In this document: one piece after another, positions 3,245-64,000 of the stretch
Numbering within the stretch: position 1 is the stretch's first letter
Layout of the letters: every line of letters starts with the position of its first letter
Origin: Octopus sinensis
Lineage: Eukaryota
Assembly: GCF_006345805.1 (NCBI RefSeq)
Contig: NW_021833741.1
Span: 1-64,000 of the forward strand
Length of the DNA stretch: 64,000 nucleotides
Direction: 5' to 3'
The notes under the pieces: generated by a model
Told to the model about the DNA's origin: nothing
Databases searched by the model: none
The model's input: only the letters and a program-made list of their open reading frames with translations
Translations under genes and position numbers: made by a program

Positions 3245-3802
3245 TAGTAGAAATTTATAGGAAAACAACAGACGAAGACTGATGTATGAACAACAAGCAC
3301 TATATTAGTTTGACGCTCGGGAAAAATGAAAAAGTCTTTAACGTTTCAAGCCTTTGCTCTTCAACAGGAACGGAACACGAGAAAATAAACAGAATGAAAA
3401 AAACTGTAGATTCAGCGGTCAACATAAATCCATCCATCCATCCATCCATCCATCCATCATCATCCATCCATCAATCCATACATACATACATACATAATAC
3501 ATATATATATATATATATATATACATGTATATTATATATAAAATATATATGTATGCATGCATGTAGTATGTATGTATGATGTATGCATGCATGCATGCAT
3601 GTATGTGTTGTGTGTGTATAGTAGAAATTTATAGGAAAACAACAGACGAAGACTGATGTATGAACAACAAGCAATTATATTAGTTTGACGCTCGGGAAAA
3701 ATGAAAAAGTCTTAACGTTTCAAGCCTTTGCTCTTCAACAGGAACGGACACGAGAAAATAAACAGAAGAAAAAAACTGTAGATTTCAGCGGTCAACATAA
3801 AT
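3245..3802 (-). repeat. Tandem duplication (about 374 bp period) of a PLE 3'-end/pLTR fragment with HHR-like motif
   Basis: 3245-3430 matches 3619-3802; minus strand has CTGTTGAAGAGCAAAGGCTTGAAACGTTAAAGAC (about 3334-3372 and 3708-3745), related to the PLE 3' end at 47632-47800. Confidence 0.7.
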
Positions 3803-6151: not shown

Positions 6152-6490
6152 GGCGTATGGCTCAGTGGTTAGAGCGTCGGGCTCACAACCATGAAGTTGT
6201 GAGTTCGATTCCCGGACAGGGCTACATGTGGTGTTCTTGAGCAAGACACTTTATTTTCCCATTGCTCCAGTTCACTCAGCTGTAGAAATGAGATGTGACG
6301 TCACAGGTGCCAAGCTGTATCGGCCCCTTTGCCTTCCCATTGAATAACATCGGTGGCGTGGAGAGGAGAGGCTGGTATGCATGGGCAACTGCTGGTCTTC
6401 CATAAACAACCTTGCCCCGGACTTATGCCCCAGAAGGGAACTTTCTAGGTGCAATCCCATGGTCATTCATGACCGAAAAGGGTCATTACC
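6152..6490 (+). mobile_element. tRNA-derived SINE, family C
   Basis: A box TGGCTCAGTGG, B box GTTCGATTCC, non-tRNA body; partial reverse copy near 15170-15257. Confidence 0.75.
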
Positions 6491-7129
6491 CTTATATCCA
6501 GGTACCTACCTGAATATGTTTCCGTCTCTAAGGGTTGGAAATCAAAGTAAAATAGAATACATTTCATGTAAACATGTGTAAATTGATACAGTCGGTTGAA
6601 GTGACCCCAGTATATGACTGTGTGTGTTTATTTCATCTGTCCCAGGAAGATGACAGACAAAGGTAACTTCGGTGAAAATTGAACTCAAGATGAACAGGGA
6701 CAAAACTAAGTACCATACAACACTTGACCCACTACTTTTGAACAACAATAGCAAGAAGAAGAAGACGAAGAAGAAGACGAAGAAGAAGAAGAAGAAGAAG
6801 AGAAGAAGAAGACGAAGACGAAGAAGAAGAAGAAGAAGAAGAAGAAGACATAAGAGCAGTGATTTTAAGGGGTGAGTCAAGTTGATTTAATCGACCCAGT
6901 ACTTGATTGGTTGTTTATCGAACTCGAAACAACGAAAGGCAAGGTCGATATTGGAAGGATAAAAAGTGAAGTGGATTTCGGTGAAAATGGAATTGAGAAC
7001 AAACTCGAAAATATCTTTAAAAAACTTGATAACCTTTGCTTGCCATAACGGACAAAATTTATATTCATCTCGTTTGTTGTCTGCAGTCAATCATCATGAG
7101 GTGGAGGTGGGGGGGGGACAGACGGACAC

Positions 7130-9075: not shown

Positions 9076-9687
9076 TGTAGTAGTAAAGCATTCACGATAA
9101 AACCTCATAAGCTCATTCTATGAATCTGCCTTCAGCTTCAGTTGAATGCGGGACGGGAATCATTACAACAATTCTGGCCTTCCATGGTGTACTTCATTCA
9201 TCCAGAGTTTAACAACGGCCCTCAATACCTCAACGCATTAATCTTAAGACTCTGTGGGAAGATGTGAGTCGGTTTTGACATGAGCTTCGTTACTCACCGC
9301 TCCTCAAGCCATCGCAGTTATTGGAAATTTGGAATGCATCACTCTGAAGACATGAGAAGGATCTGCACAGAACCGTCTCCTTTTTCTCCGGTTATTCTGT
9401 TGGTCCCGATTGAAGTTTCCGCATTATGGCATAACCAAAGCCATGTTTGTGTGGGATTTTTACCATTTTCTCCTTCATTCTCCACTTTGTCCCACCTACG
9501 TCCAATGCCTACTATATACGATACAAAGGATCGAACCACAAGCCAGTCGCATGCAGTAACAACTTGAAAAGTTCTTAACTCGTGTTCGAACTTAATATAT
9601 GCTTCAGAAAACAAAAGGGTCAGTCGAGTGCAGAGCATAACAGAAAATTAAATAAATGACAGAGGAATAAGAAATTTCATTAGGTTA

Positions 9688-9817
9688 CAGCTGTTTTGGT
9701 TACAAGATGCAATGCACTCATAGTGGAGTGTTTGTGTAAGCTCCGATAAAGCTCGAAAGTGAGACAGACACAAGCACTCAACTATGAGTGCATTGCATCT
9801 TGTAGTAGAAACAGCTG
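9688..9817. repeat. Hairpin with about 50-bp arms containing decayed HHR halves
   Basis: 9688-9737 is the reverse complement of 9768-9817 with few mismatches; arm end GAAACAGCTG resembles HHR GAAA plus palindromic stem III. Confidence 0.75.
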
Positions 9818-10029
9818 CAAGCTAAGTTCGTGACATAATGGGTCTTTCTTTTATCATTACATTACTTTCTCTCTCCCTCTCTCTCTCTCTCTCTCCCTCT
9901 CTCCCTCTCTCTCTCTCTCACCCCCTCTCTCTCTCTCTCCTCCTGCTTCCATTTCCTGAGCGCCTATTAATAATAATACTGTAATTGTTCCATTGTTGTT
10001 GTTTTTTTGTTTTCCCGTTGGATTAAAAT

Positions 10030-20620: not shown

Positions 20621-21781
20621 CCATCCATCCATCCATCCATCCATCCATCCATCCATCCATCCATACATACATACATACATACATACATACATACATACAT
20701 AAACACATACAGTCCCAGGCAGTGGCTCTCATAGCTTTTGATCTTTGCTTATTGGAAGTGTTATCATGTACATTGTTTTGTCTTGGTATAAAAGATGGGC
20801 GACAGCAAATATTCTGCTCAATACCACAGATTTGCTTGTCAATCATATAACCAGTTGACCATGCCCCTTAGTGGTTGACGATATGTGCATCTCTGATCAC
20901 GAGCAGAAGTAGTGGCGAAGCATCATAGCCATGTGTTGGGAGGAATTCTTTGGGGTTTGGATAATTCACCATTGGAAACATCAGATAATTTGGGGTTTGG
21001 ATAATTCACCTTTGAAAACATCCTTAAACACCCCTTATTCAGGGACCTTTTGAGTGGGATGGCCTACTCCACCCGAAGAAGATTTTAACTGGGTCCCACC
21101 CGCAAAGTCATGTGCTGTTTCTCAGAGAAACCAAGAACTCATAGCAGCGACCATATATATTTTGTTTGTGTCGTGGCTCCAGTTAAGTTTTTGCTGATTA
21201 ACACTTAAAATTCATTATTGTAGTAAATTAATTTGAACGGCGAAATTCGAAGCAGATATAACTATAAATAACAGCGTGTAGAATTTTGGTTAAAACCCCC
21301 AATACATGCTATTATTTGTAGCTTTATCTACTTCGAATTTCATCGTTCTAAGTAATTTATTTCATATCTCACAAACTTTCTGAATTCTTATAAAGTAAAC
21401 AACTTTCGTTGTAGTTTTTTCAATATTGAGTATCTTTTTTAACAAAATGGTCCCATCACCTCAGAGATTCGAACCTCTTGAGATGCTTGTAACTATCTGT
21501 ACTCCAATGAATGCGCTGGTCGGGAATTTATGGAGACAACCCGCAAAACTCTCCCCGAAAGTAATATCAGGGAAGGTATGTGTTGAGGGTGTCTTTGTTG
21601 ATATTGTCGAAGTCAACATCAATGGACGTCACCGAAGACATAAAGCAGATTATTCAGTGGCTCAGTGACCTTTAGTTTCGTACTTTGTACTTTTCAAACT
21701 CTGATAAATGCATTCGCATGAAACTCTTGAGAGCTCTTTGATTAATAAATATGCATTATATATATGTCTATTGGTCGCACG

Positions 21782-27424: not shown

Positions 27425-28588
27425 AGAATGAATGTTTTTATATATAATGAACGTGAAATACAGGAGGGACGAACACGGAACACAGACAAATCATTCGAAG
27501 CCTTCAATCTTCAGTCAGACACACCGAATCATCATAGCAAATTTCGGCTGTTCAATTCTGATATTTGCTCCAACTCGGCCAGCCCCAAGAAAAAAAACTA
27601 AGCTGTAAGCATTAGATTTCTTGGTAGAAGACAGGAATGTGAACGCACAAGACGGATGTAAATACAAGAGACGAAAACGAAATTGAAAACAGTAATGAAT
27701 AAACAAAATATATATAACGGTGGTTGTCATACGACTTTAGAACAAATGAGACAAAAACAACAACAACATAGCTGGCGTAGAAATAATTACCGTTTCGGTA
27801 GCGGGGACACATGTTGGTCGAGATACGATGGCCAACAGAATGGTTTAAGAAGCAGCAGGTTGCAGGAGAGAGAGAGAAAGAGAGACAGAGAGAGAGGGAA
27901 TCAAAGAGGGTGGAAGGCAGGGGACAGAATCAGTGACCAAGAGAAAAGGAGAAAGAAGGGATTAAGGAGGATGGGAGGAAGAGGGGAGGAGGATGGGAGG
28001 AAGAGAGGAAGAATCGGAGGGCGCCAAAAAGTTTGGTGAAGAAGCAATGGCGGGTAGGAAAGACAGTGTGTATAGAGTCGTGCAGGGTTAAAATTGGACA
28101 AACAAACGGGGGGGGGGGGGTGCACGTAACGCCGCAATAATATAAGAATGAATGTTTTTATATATAATGAACGTGAAATACAGGAAGGGACGAACACGGA
28201 ACACAGACAAATCATTCGAAGCCTTCAATCTTCAGTCAGACACCGAATCATCATAGCAAATTCGGCTGTTCAATTCTGATATTTGCTCCAACTCGGCCAG
28301 CCCCAGAAAAAAAAACTAAGCTGTAAGCATTAGATTTCTTGGTAGAAGACAGGAATGTGAACGCACAGACGGATGTAAAAAACAAGAGACGAAAACGAAA
28401 TTGAAAACAGTAATGAATAAACAAAATATATATAACGGTGGTTGTCATACGACTTTAGACCAAATGAGACAAAAACAACAACACATAGCTGGCGTAGAAA
28501 TAATTACCGTTTCGGTAGCGGGGACACATGTTGGTCGAGATACGAAGGCAACAGAATGGTTTAAGAAGCAGCAGTTGCAGGAGAGAGA
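27421..28588. mobile_element. Non-coding element with about 450-bp direct repeats, flanked by (TA)n
   Basis: 27421-27870 matches 28141-28588, separated by a purine-rich spacer. Confidence 0.55.
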
Positions 28589-41939: not shown

Positions 41940-41976
41940 TATATATATATATATATACATATATATATAGGCTTAG

Positions 41977-42375
41977 GAGTGGCTGTGTGGTAAGTAGCTT
42001 GCTTGCCAACCACATGGTTCCCAGTTCAGTCCCACTGCGTGGCACCTTGGGCAAGTGTCTTCTACTATAGCCACCGGTCGACCAAATCCTTGTGTGTGGA
42101 TTTGGTAGACGGAAACTGAGAGAAGCCCGTCGTTTATACGTGTATATATATATATACATGTATATGTGTGTGTGTGTTTGTAAGTTTGTGTTTGTCCCCC
42201 CCAGCATCACTTGACAACCGATGCTGGTGCGTTTACGTCTCCGTTTGGCAAAAGAGACCGATAGAATAAGTACTAGTCTTACAAAGAATAAGTCCTGGGG
42301 TCGATTTGCTCAACTAAAGGCGGTGTTCCAGCATGGCCGCAGTCACCTGACTGAAACAAGTAAAAAGAGTAAAAG
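41977..42375 (+). mobile_element. SINE family B
   Basis: Full head-microsatellite-tail structure, as at 13647. Confidence 0.85.
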
Positions 42376-42391
42376 ATATATATATATATAT

Positions 42392-42517
42392 CTGAAGAGC
42401 GTAGGCTCGAAACGTTAAAGACTTTTTTATTTATATTTCCCTAGCGCCATACTAATTCAATTGTTTGTTTGTTTCCCACCTGCCTTCGTCTTTTGTCTAT
42501 TTTCATAAGCTTCCCGT

Positions 42518-42519
<2 letters not shown>
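42392..42519 (+). mobile_element. 5'-truncated PLE 3' end starting within the HHR motif
   Basis: TGAAGAGCGTAGGCTCGAAACGTTAAAGAC..AAGCTTCCCGTTATA is the reverse-complement homolog of 47632-47790; repeated at 43192-43320. Confidence 0.75.
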
Positions 42520-42549
<30 letters not shown>

Positions 42550-42777
42550 ATTAAAATTAATATGACCAGCAACATACACACACACACATACGCACATATA
42601 CAGACATGTGTATATTTATACATACATACATATGTATAAACATATATGTGTGTGTGTATATATAAGTATATATATATATATATATATATCTATACATACA
42701 TATATATGTGTATGTGAATATATATGTAGAAATATATATATATATATAATATATATATACATATATATATAGGCTTA

Positions 42778-43175
42778 GGAGTGGCTGTGTGGTAAGTAGC
42801 TTGCTTGCCAACCACATGGTTCCCAGTTCAGTCCCACTGCGTGGCACCTTGGGCAAGTGTCTTCTACTATAGCCACCGGTCGACCAAATCCTTGTGTGTG
42901 GATTTGGTAGACGGAAACTGAGAGAAGCCCGTCGTTTATACGTGTATATATATATATACATGTATATGTGTGTGTGTTTGTAAGTTTGTGTTTGTCCCCC
43001 CCAGCATCACTTGACAACCGATGCTGGTGCGTTTACGTCTCCGTTTGGCAAAAGAGACCGATAGAATAAGTACTAGTCTTACAAAGAATAAGTCCTGGGG
43101 TCGATTTGCTCAACTAAAGGCGGTGTTCCAGCATGGCCGCAGTCACCTGACTGAAACAAGTAAAAAGAGTAAAAG
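42778..43175 (+). mobile_element. SINE family B (duplicate)
   Basis: Copy of 41977-42375. Confidence 0.85.
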
Positions 43176-43320
43176 ATATATATATATATATCTGAAGAGC
43201 GTAGGCTCGAAACGTTAAAGACTTGTTTTATTTATATTTCCCTAGCGCCATACTAATTCAATTGTTTGTTTGTTTCCCACCTGCCTTCGTCTTTTGTCTA
43301 TTTTCATAAAGCTTCCCGTT

Positions 43321-43351
<31 letters not shown>

Positions 43352-43669: not shown

Positions 43670-43789
43670 AAATTCAACAAAACCTGTTACTCTGAGTTTC
43701 ACGTTGCCATTCGTCGGACAGTTTTTTCTAGCAAAAACTGTCCGACGAACGGCAACGTGAAACTCAGAGTAACAAGTTTTGTTGAATTT
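43670..43789. ncRNA. Near-perfect palindrome with divergent HHR motifs on both strands
   Basis: Plus 43738-43776: CTGT-CCGACGA-ACG(GCAA)CGT-GAAA-CTCAGAG-TA-ACA; mirror copy on minus 43684-43721; U4C core variant. Confidence 0.7.
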
Positions 43790-43973: not shown

Positions 43974-44663
43974 TTTTTTTCTAGTTTCAGCTCAGAGCTG
44001 CGGCCATGCTGATGCACCGCCGTGTTGTGCTACACTGTTATTACGAAGAACCTCGTCTAATATGTGGCACTTGGTGAAGAATGGAGTTTGATACAGCTAC
44101 TCTCATTTGCACCTCTTGCCGTGAGGTAGGTTCATCTGGGACTCTCGACAGGAAGATGGCCAGCCTTGATTTAAAAACCGCTACATCTACTTTGTGCAAG
44201 TTCCTCAGACTCTTTGGGAGAATATTAAAAAGCTGTGGGCCCTTGAAATCCAGTCTGTTGCAGAAGCTGGTCCTGAAGCGTGATGGCATTACTGGGATCT
44301 TTGGCACTATGCAGTGTCGTCCCGTTCTAGCATTGGTGTAGCTTACAATGCCAAAATTTGGCACAATTCCTTCCAGGATCTTCCAGACATATATTACTGC
44401 ATACCTCTCCCGTCTTCTCTCCAGGGAGTAGAGTCTTAGCTGTTTCAACCTTTCCCAGTAGCTTAGCCGTTGCAAAGAGACGATTTTCTTTGTGAATCTT
44501 CTCTGGATTGCTTCAAGGTCCGCTGTTAATTTTACACTGGTGGGTGACCATAGCTGTGAGCAGTAATCCAGGCGGCTGAGGACGAATATCCGCCAGAGGA
44601 CCATCATGGTTTTCTTATCTCTGGTTCTGAATGTTCTTAGGATCCACCCAGCCAGTCGTCTGC
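43974..44663 (-). mobile_element. 3' fragment of CR1/L2-group LINE (ORF2 C-terminus plus tail)
   Basis: ORF 44041-44607: SRLDYCSQLWSP..LEAIQRRFTK..SYWERLKQLRLYSLERRRER; truncated at (TA)n. Confidence 0.9.
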
Positions 44664-45615
44664 ATATATATATATATATATATATATATAGATATATATA
44701 CCTAGTGAAGCCTTACTATAGCGTCGTAAATTTATCGGTTGCTATATCCAGTAAATATTGGTGCATTGTCGCACCACTATACTATATTTATACTTCTCCC
44801 TTTTCGGTGCTTTATTTGACTGGAAAGTGATGCATTTATTTTGCAAAATTTAATTTTTCATTGAAAACTTTTTCACTGTTCTCGGTTCTGTCAACCGTTA
44901 GGCGTTCATGCGAGTCTACTGGCATTGATGTAGCAACATTTGAAATATTATCCAGGTAAATCAAATTTACGGTAACAAACGTGTTTGAAGAGTCTGAAAC
45001 CTAGGTACTGGATTATCTAATTCTGGGTTGTCCATTTATCTAATGTTCTTCCTGGAGGTAAGACGAACGTTTTTATGTTTGTTGTCCTCACATGTCTTTG
45101 CCAGTATATACACAGTGAAGCTTTACTATAGAGTCGTAAATTTATCAATTGCTATTTCCAGTAAACATAGGTGCCTTGTTTACCACTACTCTCTCTCCTT
45201 CCCTCTCTCTCTCTCTTACTCTCTCTCTCCCTCTCTCTCTCTTACTCTCCCTCTCCCTCTCTCTCTCTCTTTCTATATATATATATATACATGTATTCAT
45301 ATACATGTATACATACACAATCTACGTGTGTGCTTTTATGCATCAAGTGCCTATATGAGAGGATCTCTTAAGACTAATGGTGTAATATATGGTTTTCTAA
45401 CAAGACATCCACGTTGAGTTGGATATAAAAATTGCATTTTATACTTGTGCATGTGTGTGTACGTATGTATGTATATATATCGTAAATATGAGGGTAATAA
45501 ATTAGAATAATTAATTAATAAAAGTCAGGAGACATAACATATTTTTAAAGATAAAAAGTGTATAAAATATTTTTCGGTACATATTTGAAACTATATAATT
45601 ATTCATTAATTAGCG

Positions 45616-45935: not shown

Positions 45936-46087
45936 ATAATATCAATAATATAAATATATGCATATATACATACATATATGTACATACCTACATATATAAA
46001 AAAGCAACTATATGAAAGCATTATTACTGTTAAAAACTGTAATAACGAGGCAGTTTGCAAGACTTCTACCTTAATAGGAATAATATT

Positions 46088-46774
46088 AAATATTTGAATA
46101 AAAGAAGGGTAAAAATACCGCTTGCCAAAGATGAAAGCGAGAGCTTTAAAAAACCACCAATCCTGCGATAAAATACACAGACGAGCAACGCAGTGAACAC
46201 TTGAAAAAATAGGCCTACCTTCAGGATGGAATTTGAAAGTGGTTTACATACCCCAATATCAATTGATTTCATGCTGTGCATGAGAAAATATGCTTTGCAA
46301 TCTTCAGTTGGAGATAGTAACATCTATTTCTAAAATATTCATAACGTCAACTCGATTGTGTTTCGAACTTTAAACGTCCCGCTCCGTTCAAAGAGAAAAC
46401 TATCGTAAACAATAAAAATAGCAAATATATGAAAGCATAATTACTGTTAAAAACTGTAATAATGAGGCGGTTAGCAAGACTTCTACCTTAATAGGTATAA
46501 TATTAAATATTTGAATAAAAGAAACGCACTCGAGTTGACGTAGTGAATATTTTAGAAAAGATTGCAAAGCATGTTTTCTCATGCACAGCATGAAATCAAT
46601 TGATATTGGGGGTATGTAAACTATCCTCAAATTCCATCCTGAAGGTAGGCCTATTTTTTCAAGTGTTCACTGCGTTGCTCGTCTATGTATTTTATCGCAG
46701 GATTGGTGGGTTTTGAAGCTTTCGCTTTCATCTTTGGCAAGCGGTATTTTTATCCTTCTTTTATTCAAATATTT
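46088..46774. repeat. Long inverted repeat (about 250-bp arms) with overlapping direct repeat
   Basis: 46088-46354 versus 46530-46774 inverted; about 46005-46106 versus 46420-46522 direct. Confidence 0.9.
46253..46311 (-). ncRNA. Type I hammerhead motif
   Basis: Minus: CCAA-CTGAAGA-TTGC..GCAT-GAAA-TCAATTGA-TA-TTGG; palindromic stem III. Confidence 0.65.
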
Positions 46775-47583
46775 ATCTACGTATATATGTATATATACAT
46801 GCATATATGGGTACAGGACATAAAAAAAACGTAGACAAAATGTGAAACGAGAACATAAAGAAAAAAAAAACAAATAGAGGAACGAGACATGCAACATAAA
46901 GAACATTCCCTTCATCAGTTGTCCCCTGTTTTATCTACTCCGCGTTTCGAAGGTAAGAAGAAGACGCGAGTTCATTTAAATAGTCCTTCCCGCAAAGCAA
47001 ATTAAGTAAAATTTGGGATTTTTTGCGGAGAGTGAAAGTGGTAACAAAAACAGGACAGTGAGAACAAAACTGTAAAAACAAACGGTGAGGGCCTGTTAAG
47101 CCAAGACGATGAGAAGTGCTGAAGGCTGGGAAACGAGCTTTGAGAAGAGACAGGCAAATGCACGTCTTGTCTTTAGGAAGGAAGTGGAAGAAAGAAGGAT
47201 GGATGACCGTTTGTCACGTGTGAGCAAGGAGAGAGTCAAGGAGGAAGAGTGAGAGAGAGAGGGGAAAGGGTGGAAGAGAAAAACAGAAAGGAAGAAGAAC
47301 AAGAGAGGGAGATAGACAAAACGTCCCTAAAATAAATTAATTCACGTTCTCGAATTATCACAATTCTTATGACGTCAGTAATATATATATGTTGTTAAAT
47401 TCTCGAAATCCGAGACTAGAAAAACAGCCAACAACTGATGAAGGGTCGTTCTTTGTGTTGTTTATTTTGTTTTCCATTTGTGTCTTTCGTTGTTCGAAAA
47501 AATAGTTCATATTCCATTTGCTCGTGCTTCGTATTTTTATTTACATATTTCTTTCTTTACGTCCTGTGCCCACGTATGCTTAT

Positions 47584-50769: not shown

Positions 50770-50907
50770 TGTGTGTGCGTGTAATAAGCATATACCTGAT
50801 ATATATATATATATATTATATATATATATATATATTGATAAAACGGTAAGATAACAAAAGAAAGAAAGAGCCCTCAATATTATGTAAATAGAGGAAATTT
50901 ATCTATC

Positions 50908-51079
50908 CAATATGTTACATTACTCGGTAGTCAAGATAAACTCTGAGTTTCAGATGCCGAAGTGGAAATCCACAACACCATCTCTTCGGTTATCTGGCTA
51001 TTTCAAATAGCCAGATAACCGATTTCCACTTCGGCATCTGAAACTCAGAGTTTTATGTGACTACCGAGTAATGTAACAT

Positions 51080-51083
<4 letters not shown>
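50908..51083. ncRNA. Palindrome with HHR-like motif on the minus arm
   Basis: Centre near 51004; minus 50935-50994: GATAA-CCGAAGA-GATG..CATCT-GAAA-CTCAGAG-TT-TATC; right arm lacks 17 nt spanning the core. Confidence 0.65.
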
Positions 51084-51131
<48 letters not shown>

Positions 51132-62489: not shown

Positions 62490-62551
<62 letters not shown>

Positions 62552-62690
62552 CAATTAAGATTCAAGCGAGTTCAATTGAATTCACATGAATATGTACTTA
62601 ACTTGGATGCCCGGAATCTATATGGTGTTAACCATACGACAAGGTGGGGTGATTACAATAGGAAAAAAGCAACAAGAATGGATCAATATA

Positions 62691-62775
62691 TCGGTACAAT
62701 TGTTTCGTACGAAGACATCTTTAATAAGGCTACAAAAATTGCAGTAAATATAGGTGGCTCGTACTCATCAGCCGA
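62691..62775 (-). ncRNA. Type I hammerhead ribozyme (left arm of inverted repeat)
   Basis: Minus: TCGG-CTGATGA-GTACGA..TCGTAC-GAAA-CAATTG-TA-CCGA. Confidence 0.85.
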
Positions 62776-63006
62776 AAAAACATCTTCACATTCATCTTCA
62801 CTTTCATCTTCACTTTCATCTTCACTTTCTGGAAAACTAAGAGGTTTTGAAAATTTTTTTTAAAAACCTGATATATGACTGTGTAATACTAATTGAACTT
62901 TTAGAAACCAATTTGTTATCTAAATTCTCATTTTTATAGAACTTTCCATGATGTTTCACGAGTGTAACATTACCCCCTTTGATGTTTGGGAATCTCGGGT
63001 GTTTTT

Positions 63007-63091
63007 TCGGCTGATGAGTACGAGCCACCTATATTTACTGCAATTTTTGTAGCCTTATTAAAGATGTCTTTGTACGAAACAATTGTACCGA
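63007..63091 (+). ncRNA. Type I hammerhead ribozyme (right arm of inverted repeat)
   Basis: TCGG-CTGATGA-GTAC..GTAC-GAAA-CAATTG-TA-CCGA; canonical core; GUA at 63085-63087. Confidence 0.85.
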
Positions 63092-63128
63092 TATATTGAT
63101 CATTCTTTTCTTGTTGCTTTTTCGTTCC

Positions 63129-63162
<34 letters not shown>

Positions 63163-63282
63163 ATATAGATATATAATATATATATATATAATATATATAT
63201 ATAATTATATATATTATATATATGTATATATATTTATATATGTATATATTTATATATATTATATATAATTTATATATATATG

Positions 63283-63337
<55 letters not shown>

Positions 63338-63338
<1 letters not shown>

Positions 63339-63599
63339 CGTACATATGTTTCTTTTCTGGCTTTTATTAGACAGTTTATTTCAATGCATAATTGATGTAA
63401 TATGTATGTCAATTAGCCTTCTTCAGCCGCGCACAATTACCACTCCAAGGACATGTATTACATTACTGTCCAAACCTATAATGTAATACATGTCCTGGAG
63501 TGGTAATAGTGCGCGGCTGAAGAAGGCTATTGACATACATATTACATCATTATGCATTGATATAAACTGTTTAATAAAAGCCAGAAACATATGTACCGC
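63338..63599. ncRNA. Hairpin (about 125-bp arms, 13-nt loop) with HHR motifs on both strands
   Basis: Plus 63513-63599: GCGG-CTGAAGA-AGGCT..AGCCA-GAAA-CATATG-TA-CCGC; mirror on minus 63338-63430 with small indels. Confidence 0.8.
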
Positions 63600-63674
63600 T
63601 AAATCCTTTGCATCCTGTTTTTTCTTTTGATATATATATATATATATATATCATATATATATATATATATATAT

Positions 63675-64000
63675 GACTTTCTGAAGGATAGAAGTCAGGT
63701 GGTAGTAGCCACTTCCACTAACACGCAAATAGTGAGCGGTCTTCAGCAGGGCACTGTTTTGGACCACTACTGTTCATAATGGCCCTCTCAGACATGCCCT
63801 CAGTCATGCAGAGAGCCACGATCACAAGTTATGCAGATGATACAAAAGTTTCACAGGCAATACAGAACCCTGAAGACACTAAGCACCTGCAATGTGAGCT
63901 GGACAAAATTTACAAGTGGGCTGAAAAGAATAGCATGCAGTTCAATGCTGAAAAGTTTCAAGCTCTATGCTATCAGCACGCAAAACTAAATGCAATACCC
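63675..64000 (+). mobile_element. 5'-truncated LINE reverse transcriptase (CR1/L2 group), runs off the window
   Basis: SGLQQGTV/GPLLFIMALSDMP..SYADDTKV..LQCELDKIYKWAEKNSMQFNAEK (one frameshift); begins after (TA)n. Confidence 0.9.

Follow-up and report, generated by a model that had tools for sequence, protein, structure and literature searches.

The question raised by this locus is what has placed, near the end of a 64,000-nt stretch of Octopus sinensis DNA (the window, meaning the whole stretch that was analysed), a long palindrome with hammerhead ribozyme sequence in both arms, beside a second hairpin at 62663-63122. A first-pass annotation of the window had taken the two hairpins for unrelated sequences of one recurrent double-ribozyme design, and had suggested fold-back priming as one way in which the reverse transcriptase (RT) of a Penelope-like element (PLE) could make them. 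The hairpin at 63338-63599 is a genuine feature, and we are close to certain that it is an inverted stub of a PLE. Our fuller reading, to which we give a probability of roughly 85%, is that it consists of two oppositely oriented 3' ends of a Hydra-clade PLE, joined at their truncated 5' ends within (TA)n sequence and likely made by two separate primings on one RNA.

In self-alignment, 63338-63599 matches its own reverse complement over its entire length, with inverted arms (63338-63465 and 63470-63599) about 91% alike around a 4-nt centre, and its minimum free energy of -182.9 kcal/mol lies far below that of 60 dinucleotide shuffles (-52.0 +/- 4.1 kcal/mol), so that the inverted repeat described at the outset stands. 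The extent first assigned to it is right for the left arm only, since the end of the right arm lies at about 63632, 36-39 nt beyond the cut site, next to a TA run. The left arm is without the +7 to +39 end and without the tail, and stops 6 nt past the cut site, also in a TA run; the reported TA flanks are thus found at both ends, and TA runs are present at the 3' ends of nearly all printed copies of both hairpin families. The features of the region are as follows.

63129-63337, no strand: (TA)n-rich tract, read from the sequence, separating the first hairpin from the hairpin at 63338; insertion target of both families
63338-63465, minus strand: left arm, an inverted 5'-truncated pLTR piece, element about -119 to +6 from the hammerhead cut site
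63338-63430, minus strand: left hammerhead, damaged, with CUGAAGA at 63426-63420, GAAA at 63352-63349 and GUA ending at 63341
63466-63469, no strand: hairpin centre, 4 nt, matched by neither arm's template, microhomology absent
63470-63632, plus strand: right arm, a 5'-truncated pLTR piece, element about -127 to +37/+39, with a short, tail-less 3' end
63513-63599, plus strand: type I hammerhead of the right arm, core intact, cut predicted after 63595, activity predicted
63524-63583, plus strand: stem II region, flanking A at 63524 and A at 63583, 4-bp helix, 50-nt insert
63630-63674, no strand: (TA)n tract at the right end, read from the sequence

When the centre is delimited by exact extension instead, 10 nt remain, 6 of which fit the family save for one adjacent substitution. 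No remnant of the left arm's tail was found elsewhere in the window, and tblastn found no PLE coding sequence within it. LINE-type reverse transcriptase fragments occur at 44044-44712 and at 63675-64000, the second beginning directly after the hairpin's TA run and continuing beyond the window end.

A palindrome in an assembly can be an artefact of a missed adapter or a fold-back read, and several of the differences between the arms are single-base indels in runs, as such an origin might leave. The centre is spanned by none of the contigs from small shares of four sequencing runs, which is silent either way on the junction or on expression; the family itself is present in contigs of each of the four runs. 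Yet the arms differ by about 9%, a 5-nt duplication included, the outer flanks are not mirrored, and 25 of 72 family loci are built alike, their one-sided tails being something that no assembly error would produce. We therefore consider an assembly origin the least probable of all the explanations weighed here.

The two divergent hammerheads first reported in this palindrome fared differently, the right one being intact and of type I and the left one broken. In the right arm the type I core (CUGANGA, GAAA, NUH) is present with stems I to III: stem I at 63513-63516/63596-63599, CUGAAGA at 63517-63523, an extra A at 63524, stem II as GGCU (63525-63528) and AGCC (63579-63582) around the 50-nt insert, an extra A at 63583, GAAA at 63584-63587, a 2-bp stem III with a palindromic loop, and the GUA site with its predicted cut after 63595. 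The long stem II insert, palindromic stem III and GUA site of the original description are all to be seen here, and the minimum free energy fold of the isolated right hammerhead is hammerhead-shaped. The left arm lacks an intact stem I and an intact junction of stem II with the core; between stem II and GAAA there is a 5-nt duplication, at about 63353-63357, and the 3' strand of stem I is one C short. Because of this duplication and missing C, the left hammerhead was missed by a motif scan of both window strands, whose matches were the right-arm one (core at 63517), the two in the neighbouring hairpin and a further one at 46307. Rfam gave no hammerhead match at E<=10 in 62600-63700, a miss that the long stem II insert probably explains, and Rfam's miRNA matches, driven by microsatellites and hairpins and under gathering scores, were rejected as uninformative.

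Over 65 arms of the family the core is nearly invariant, with variation at N7. Pairing in stems I, II and III reaches 96, 99 and 100% across 19 distinct copies drawn from three subfamilies. The fourth stem II pair is U-A in 9 of these copies, C-G in 6 and U-G in 4; this is one inherited change, and therefore gives only modest covariation support. The non-canonical base of stem II, an A and an A flanking GGCT/AGCC, had been correctly observed and extends subfamily-wide. The base before G12 is an extra A throughout the window's subfamily and an extra C in sister subfamilies, and the A/A base is therefore real and inherited, not damage. The G10.1-C11.1 pair stacked directly on G12, highly conserved in the PLE hammerhead consensus given in PMC4209133, is absent from the right hammerhead. 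A natural hammerhead with a mismatch at 10.1-11.1, U-U, is described in PMC3088659, and the A-A (or A-C) opposition that a Hydra subfamily shows at this helix base would make it a candidate natural variant of the hammerhead core. The stem III palindrome is computed to be able to form a dimer helix of -9.0 kcal/mol. An AATAAA at 63573-63578, inside the stem II insert and 17 nt before the cut site, may act as a poly(A) signal; the insert of the neighbouring hairpin contains ATTAAA. In plus-strand read-through RNA the hammerhead is forced at -80.2 kcal/mol against -184.1 kcal/mol for the free fold, and with this cost of about 104 kcal/mol it is predicted to be buried. As each strand carries one of the hammerheads, the two are predicted to be paired off with each other in read-through RNA. 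Folding thus predicts a hammerhead silenced by pairing inside the hairpin, and the role of the motif is likely to be in the full-length element, in 3' processing of the transcript. The hammerhead of the PLE Poseidon is dispensable for insertion in vitro (PMC11167929).

The element behind the hairpin was sought in the window's own genome (2.72 Gb), where a similarity search gave 784 first-look candidates, the exact core 21-mer occurred 1807 times (reversed control, 0) and the whole hammerhead motif 1918 times. Copies are 5'-truncated and have two fixed 3' ends, which lie about +39 and about +110 relative to the cut site and both run into (TA)n, and long copies have at least 2 kb of microsatellite-rich sequence upstream of the 3' end, then an ORF. 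The hammerhead marks the element's 3' end. At one locus (L091) a 736-aa open stretch, P0002, holds a YRDD RT and an endonuclease, with a sister-subfamily hammerhead 2.2 kb downstream. At another (L079) an RT at 70% and an endonuclease at 79% to P0002 are joined to the window's own hammerhead subtype, with an arm at 90%, so that PLE coding sequence and this hammerhead, a link that the first-pass annotation had proposed to look for, stand at one locus. Loci picked by their endonuclease have a hammerhead arm downstream in the same orientation in 16 of 20 cases, within the stretch fetched. The family has the features of an EN+ PLE: a single ORF encodes a PLE-type RT and then a C-terminal GIY-YIG endonuclease and is linked to the 3' end, and 5'-truncated copies carry an inverted pLTR with the tail at one end, the window copy itself being tail-less. 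The near-invariance of the core and this link to a PLE agree with the retroelement origin proposed earlier. Among the copies found, none was full-length with a direct pLTR ahead of it, the longest ones ending within the N-terminus, and target-site duplications are unreadable in TA tracts. Pfam returned no family for P0001 or P0002; P0097, a homologue of P0002, matches PF01541 (GIY-YIG) at 1e-5. Further palindromic inserts lie inside or beside long family copies at TA runs of the 3' UTR (L032, reverse strand, 6418-6802; L031, 6229-6390; L034, 3478-3823).

P0002 has 1592 relatives at E<=1e-20, an Argonauta homologue among them, and a motif survey of 121 proteins (P0002 and 120 relatives) very probably places the element in the Hydra clade, as far as protein and RNA motifs can tell. 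According to the definitions in PMC8557442, Hydra elements have DKT in place of DKG, a CxCX5C linker, CxxC and CxH beside E and N, and no CCHH, whereas Neptune and Nematis have DKG, a CX2-5CxxC linker and the CCHH motif. In the survey, DK[TS] was found in 117/121 proteins and DKG in 0/121, P0002 reading PADKT; the linker CxC-x4-6-C-x5-C was found in 119/121, P0002 included. CxxC beside the conserved E (119/121) and CxH beside N (118/121) are both present in P0002, and the cysteine pair between GIY and YIG (CCHH) in none of the 121 proteins, P0002 included. An N-terminal RWK motif is a further mark given for Hydra; RW[KR] was seen in 83/121, the family of the neighbouring hairpin having RWR and the copies of the window's family being truncated at or before this motif. 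The canonical hammerhead and the (TA)n insertion preference are those of Hydra, and P0002 follows the Hydra rows of the supplementary alignment of PMC8557442 in a comparison by eye. Neptune, the first label given, was ruled out by the absence of DKG (0/121) and of the cysteine pair (0/121), and the Nematis definition is equally at odds with them. One cephalopod Hydra family is listed in the supplement of PMC8557442, Hydra-1_Obim, from Octopus bimaculoides.

The word "unrelated", used of the neighbouring hairpin, is right for the hairpin DNA, where the best local match is 20 nt, and wrong for the elements: the RT of the neighbour's family is 61-63% identical to P0002 (61% over 382 aa) and the endonuclease 45-46%, and it is therefore the pLTRs that have diverged and not the proteins. 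The neighbour's family has 187 exact core matches genome-wide, and its ORF is enclosed by two long two-armed loci. With RT and endonuclease linked to both hairpins, the suggestion that a PLE RT produced both, in a form recurring across families, is borne out. That the two adjacent hairpins form one unit was rejected on their joint occurrence, the other family's end lying beside 1/61 loci of the window's family and 0/38 the other way; both families end in TA tracts, and the adjacency is best explained by shared TA targeting. A pairing as in the window is seen at L147 (716-1013), where about 25 nt of TA separate a window-family end from the tail belonging to a relative of the neighbour's family. 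The first hairpin, with its full extent of 62551-63129, has the tail on its left arm (to about 62551) and a short right end, and represents a second PLE family of Hydra type. Long asparagine-rich inserts interrupt the ORF of this family (L202, L209) and resemble those that PMC3846280 describes in rotifer Penelopes. At L210 (G000:C6:12687583-12850388), nine cores of this family, all on one strand and 17-26 kb apart, mark a hairpin insertion that a large tandem duplication has carried along.

How common the two-armed form is, and whether it has a fixed layout, was read from the first 100 exact core matches on the largest contig, which gave 72 loci. Divergent pairs were present at 25/72, convergent pairs at none and a single exact core at 46/72, and 3/28 close pairs were on the same strand. 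The spacing of divergent pairs ranges from 79 to 4731 bp, and the hairpin centres therefore vary freely: they differ from copy to copy, the comparison that the first-pass annotation had proposed, and no common centre was found between sampled hairpins, re-fetched or locally duplicated loci aside. Long pairs enclose the ORF, and four loci have an inverted arm of insufficient length for a hammerhead. Any pair with both arms longer than about 85 nt will carry two hammerheads; nothing points to design. These data bear on the proposal of a purpose-built non-coding element whose two divergent hammerheads cooperate, for instance in releasing or circularising the hairpin RNA, in a design recurring in unrelated families. 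The presence of two such families in one window, the two exact cores at 25/72 loci, the conserved core and the covarying stem II would all agree with it, but the centre differs in every copy, the spacing is wide, the long pairs enclose an ORF, and the left hammerhead is broken here. In addition, forcing the fold in read-through RNA carries the high cost given above, and, lying on opposite strands, the two hammerheads cannot both be sense in a single transcript. We regard such an element as highly improbable, and the common double-ribozyme design inferred at first sight is contradicted by the varying centres, the single cores at 46/72 loci, the four inverted arms without a hammerhead and the opposite strands. 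The reverse generalisation, that every insertion hides a second arm, is likewise unsupported as a rule: among 31 single-core loci, with 0.7-1.5 kb fetched, one had an inverted tail-only piece and one an inverted arm without a core. Two loci taken as single-core turned out to be two-armed, at 2.5 and 4.2 kb.

The preferred reading, that of two joined PLE 3' ends, is informed further by the tails. A tail of about 70 nt is present on exactly one arm, the other arm being short, in 29/29 divergent pairs (25 from the exact list and 4 from flanks), and again in 3/3 further pairs, making 32/32 among pairs picked by pattern. The same holds for 13/13 two-armed loci from the similarity search, for a family total of 45/45, and for 22/22 loci of the neighbour's family (18 listed pairs, 3 from flanks and the window's own), a set in which one tail-less arm ends at about +15. 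The only two-armed locus seen without a tail on either arm is the window copy at 63338-63632, and to this copy the rule of one-sided tails therefore applies only with a later deletion. Single-core loci have the tail in 10/31 cases, counted by eye, so that independent choice of the two ends would give discordant arms at most half the time.

Arm lengths were compared in 24 cleanly mapped pairs, 5/29 having been dropped with more than 35 nt unexplained by the mapping. The lengths correlate (rho 0.63, p 0.001) and are within 15% of each other in 13/24 pairs, against a shuffled mean of 4.2. With a margin of more than 5 nt, the 5' reach is greater for the tail-less arm in 14/24 pairs and for the tailed arm in 7/24; by exact extension the figures are 12/22 and 10/22. 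Arms are also more alike within than between loci, with 2.1 against 4.7 substitutions per 105 nt in 24 sister-subfamily pairs (p 0.0004) and 2.2 against 4.5 in 5 pairs of the window's subfamily (p = 0.06). In two loci, L024 and L035, the arms barely overlap or do not overlap. Exact microhomology of at least 3 nt was found at 2/23 junctions, and is absent from the window copy, and BLAST extension gave a junction overlap of at least 3 nt in 8/24.

The published hypothesis for inverted arms is self-priming (PMC3846280), in which one strand of the same element folds back to prime the inverted arm and the endonuclease would trim the hairpin intermediate on one strand to leave a one-sided tail. The near-equal arms in 13/24 pairs and their greater likeness within a locus are what this predicts, as is the BLAST junction overlap in 8/24; palindromes at inverted junctions are reported in PMC3846280, and a one-sided tail could result if either strand of a free hairpin were nicked. 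However, a folded-back, target-primed cDNA contains its own copy, so that the tailed arm should always reach further 5', and it is the tail-less arm that does so in 14/24 pairs (12/22 by exact extension). Moreover, the arms of L024 and L035, almost or entirely without overlap, could form no stem, and exact microhomology is scarce. Only the free-hairpin version survives, covering most cases but not the non-overlapping ones. Fold-back priming, raised for this locus from the start, is thus a poor fit to the family data, and we judge it unlikely, though far less so than a designed element.

The one-sided tail, the correlated arm lengths and the tail-less arms that often reach further 5' together favour two primings over fold-back, and on these sequence comparisons a two-priming mechanism on one RNA seems to us somewhat the better account. 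In such a mechanism the endonuclease would nick both strands of the TA target, and each nick would prime reverse transcription on the same RNA, from the outer start (+110) in one case and from the inner start (+39) in the other. The two cDNAs would stop, often near the same place, and end joining with little homology would unite them; the two hammerheads would be a by-product of arms longer than about 85 nt. In the window copy, the end and tail of the left arm would later have disappeared into the TA tract, and the left hammerhead would have decayed. Two primings at two fixed starts of one RNA would account for the one-sided tail, the variants common to both arms, their similar lengths and the non-overlapping arms. 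The likeness of arms could also stem from later gene conversion, and equal lengths from later spacer loss. The Poseidon PLE protein cuts and extends both target strands in vitro and starts at two internal sites bounding the tail (PMC11167929), a result with which the two-start interpretation agrees. The strict form, in which a dimer of the PLE protein would nick both strands and obligatorily make one outer and one inner start on the same template, with co-stopping and end joining of the cDNAs, we hold at even odds. If it is true, a one-sided tail is the rule for two-armed insertions and the published self-priming model is wrong. In the titles and abstract openings returned by our searches on PLE inversion and octopus PLE hammerheads, a scope with subscription journals mostly outside it, no twin-priming model for PLE inversion was found.

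Other palindromes occur in the window. A third hammerhead-bearing inverted structure lies at 45999-46775, with a type I motif on the minus strand (46307-46257) and TA flanks; its inverted arm spans 46521-46775 (86%), and its tail may be the direct repeat at 45999-46106/46416-46523. The palindromes at 43670-43789 and 50897-51094 share the arm motif CTGAGTTTC/GAAACTCAG and adjoin TA runs; they are probably stubs of another PLE group with centres inside the hammerhead. Older palindromes (75-78%) lie at 9680-9825 and 21224-21359, and near-identical local duplications (97-100%) at 27425-28580, 41970-43324 and 3246-3800 are possibly assembly duplications.

The layout is known, and the family is a new one of a known clade; the locus itself is an ordinary decayed stub from a family of well over a thousand copies, with a layout described in 2013, 2014 and 2021. 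What is added beyond the published layout is that the tail is on one arm only in all the pairs counted, that arm lengths are correlated and that the tail-less arm often reaches further 5'. Its value lies in data on how PLEs form tandem and inverted structures, which is named as an open point in PMC8557442: the tail counts (45/45 and 22/22), the correlated arm lengths and the often longer tail-less arms give predictions testable in the in vitro system of PMC11167929. The analysis also adds two uncatalogued Hydra-clade families, and it warns annotators against taking such hairpins for MITEs, miRNA precursors or designed double ribozymes.

Among known systems, the Hydra clade described by Craig et al. 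2021 (PMC8557442), Hydra-1_Obim included, is alike in DKT, the CxC-x5-C linker, CxxC and CxH and the lack of CCHH, and also in the C-terminal GIY-YIG-type domain, the canonical hammerhead near the 3' end and the (TA)n targets. Compared with the clade as presented there, the window's family differs in a 3' UTR of at least 2 kb rich in microsatellites, asparagine-rich ORF inserts, the 50-nt stem II insert and a tail of about 70 nt instead of 30-40; the hammerhead of Hydra-1_Obim differs from the window's, and neither of the window's core 12-mers occurs in the supplement text of PMC8557442. The minimal PLE hammerheads of Cervera and de la Pena 2014 (PMC4209133), among which dual hammerheads 100-700 bp apart on opposite strands are reported, are likewise of type I, with a short stem I, an extra nucleotide after A9 and a small palindromic stem III suited to dimers; the window's subfamily differs from those described there in the extra A before G12 (an extra C in its sisters) and in a stem II insert of 40-56 nt. 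Animal non-LTR retrozymes (bioRxiv 10.64898/2026.07.22.740005; PMC7229834) similarly carry a type I hammerhead in a PLE-derived non-coding repeat, but they are described as head-to-tail tandem units, whereas here 3/28 close pairs are on the same strand and the sequence belongs to a coding element as its 3' end. A retrozyme was thus rejected, the hammerhead end being linked to an ORF and the pairs being mostly divergent. Poseidon of Anolis (Frangieh et al. 2024, PMC11167929) resembles the present family in its two tail-bounding RT starts, in the cutting and extension of both strands and in a hammerhead upstream of the starts; it belongs to a different clade, and inverted arms are not modelled in the account given there. 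Inverted 5'-truncated copies with the tail at one end are described in PMC8557442 (Fig. 2 legend), PMC3846280 and the curation guide PMC8969392, and the inverted pLTR insertions of Arkhipova et al. 2013 (PMC3846280) and Craig et al. 2021 are alike in head-to-head arms, one-sided tail and AT-rich target. In those accounts the tail is optional and self-priming is proposed, whereas here the tail is one-sided in all two-armed loci examined except the window copy.
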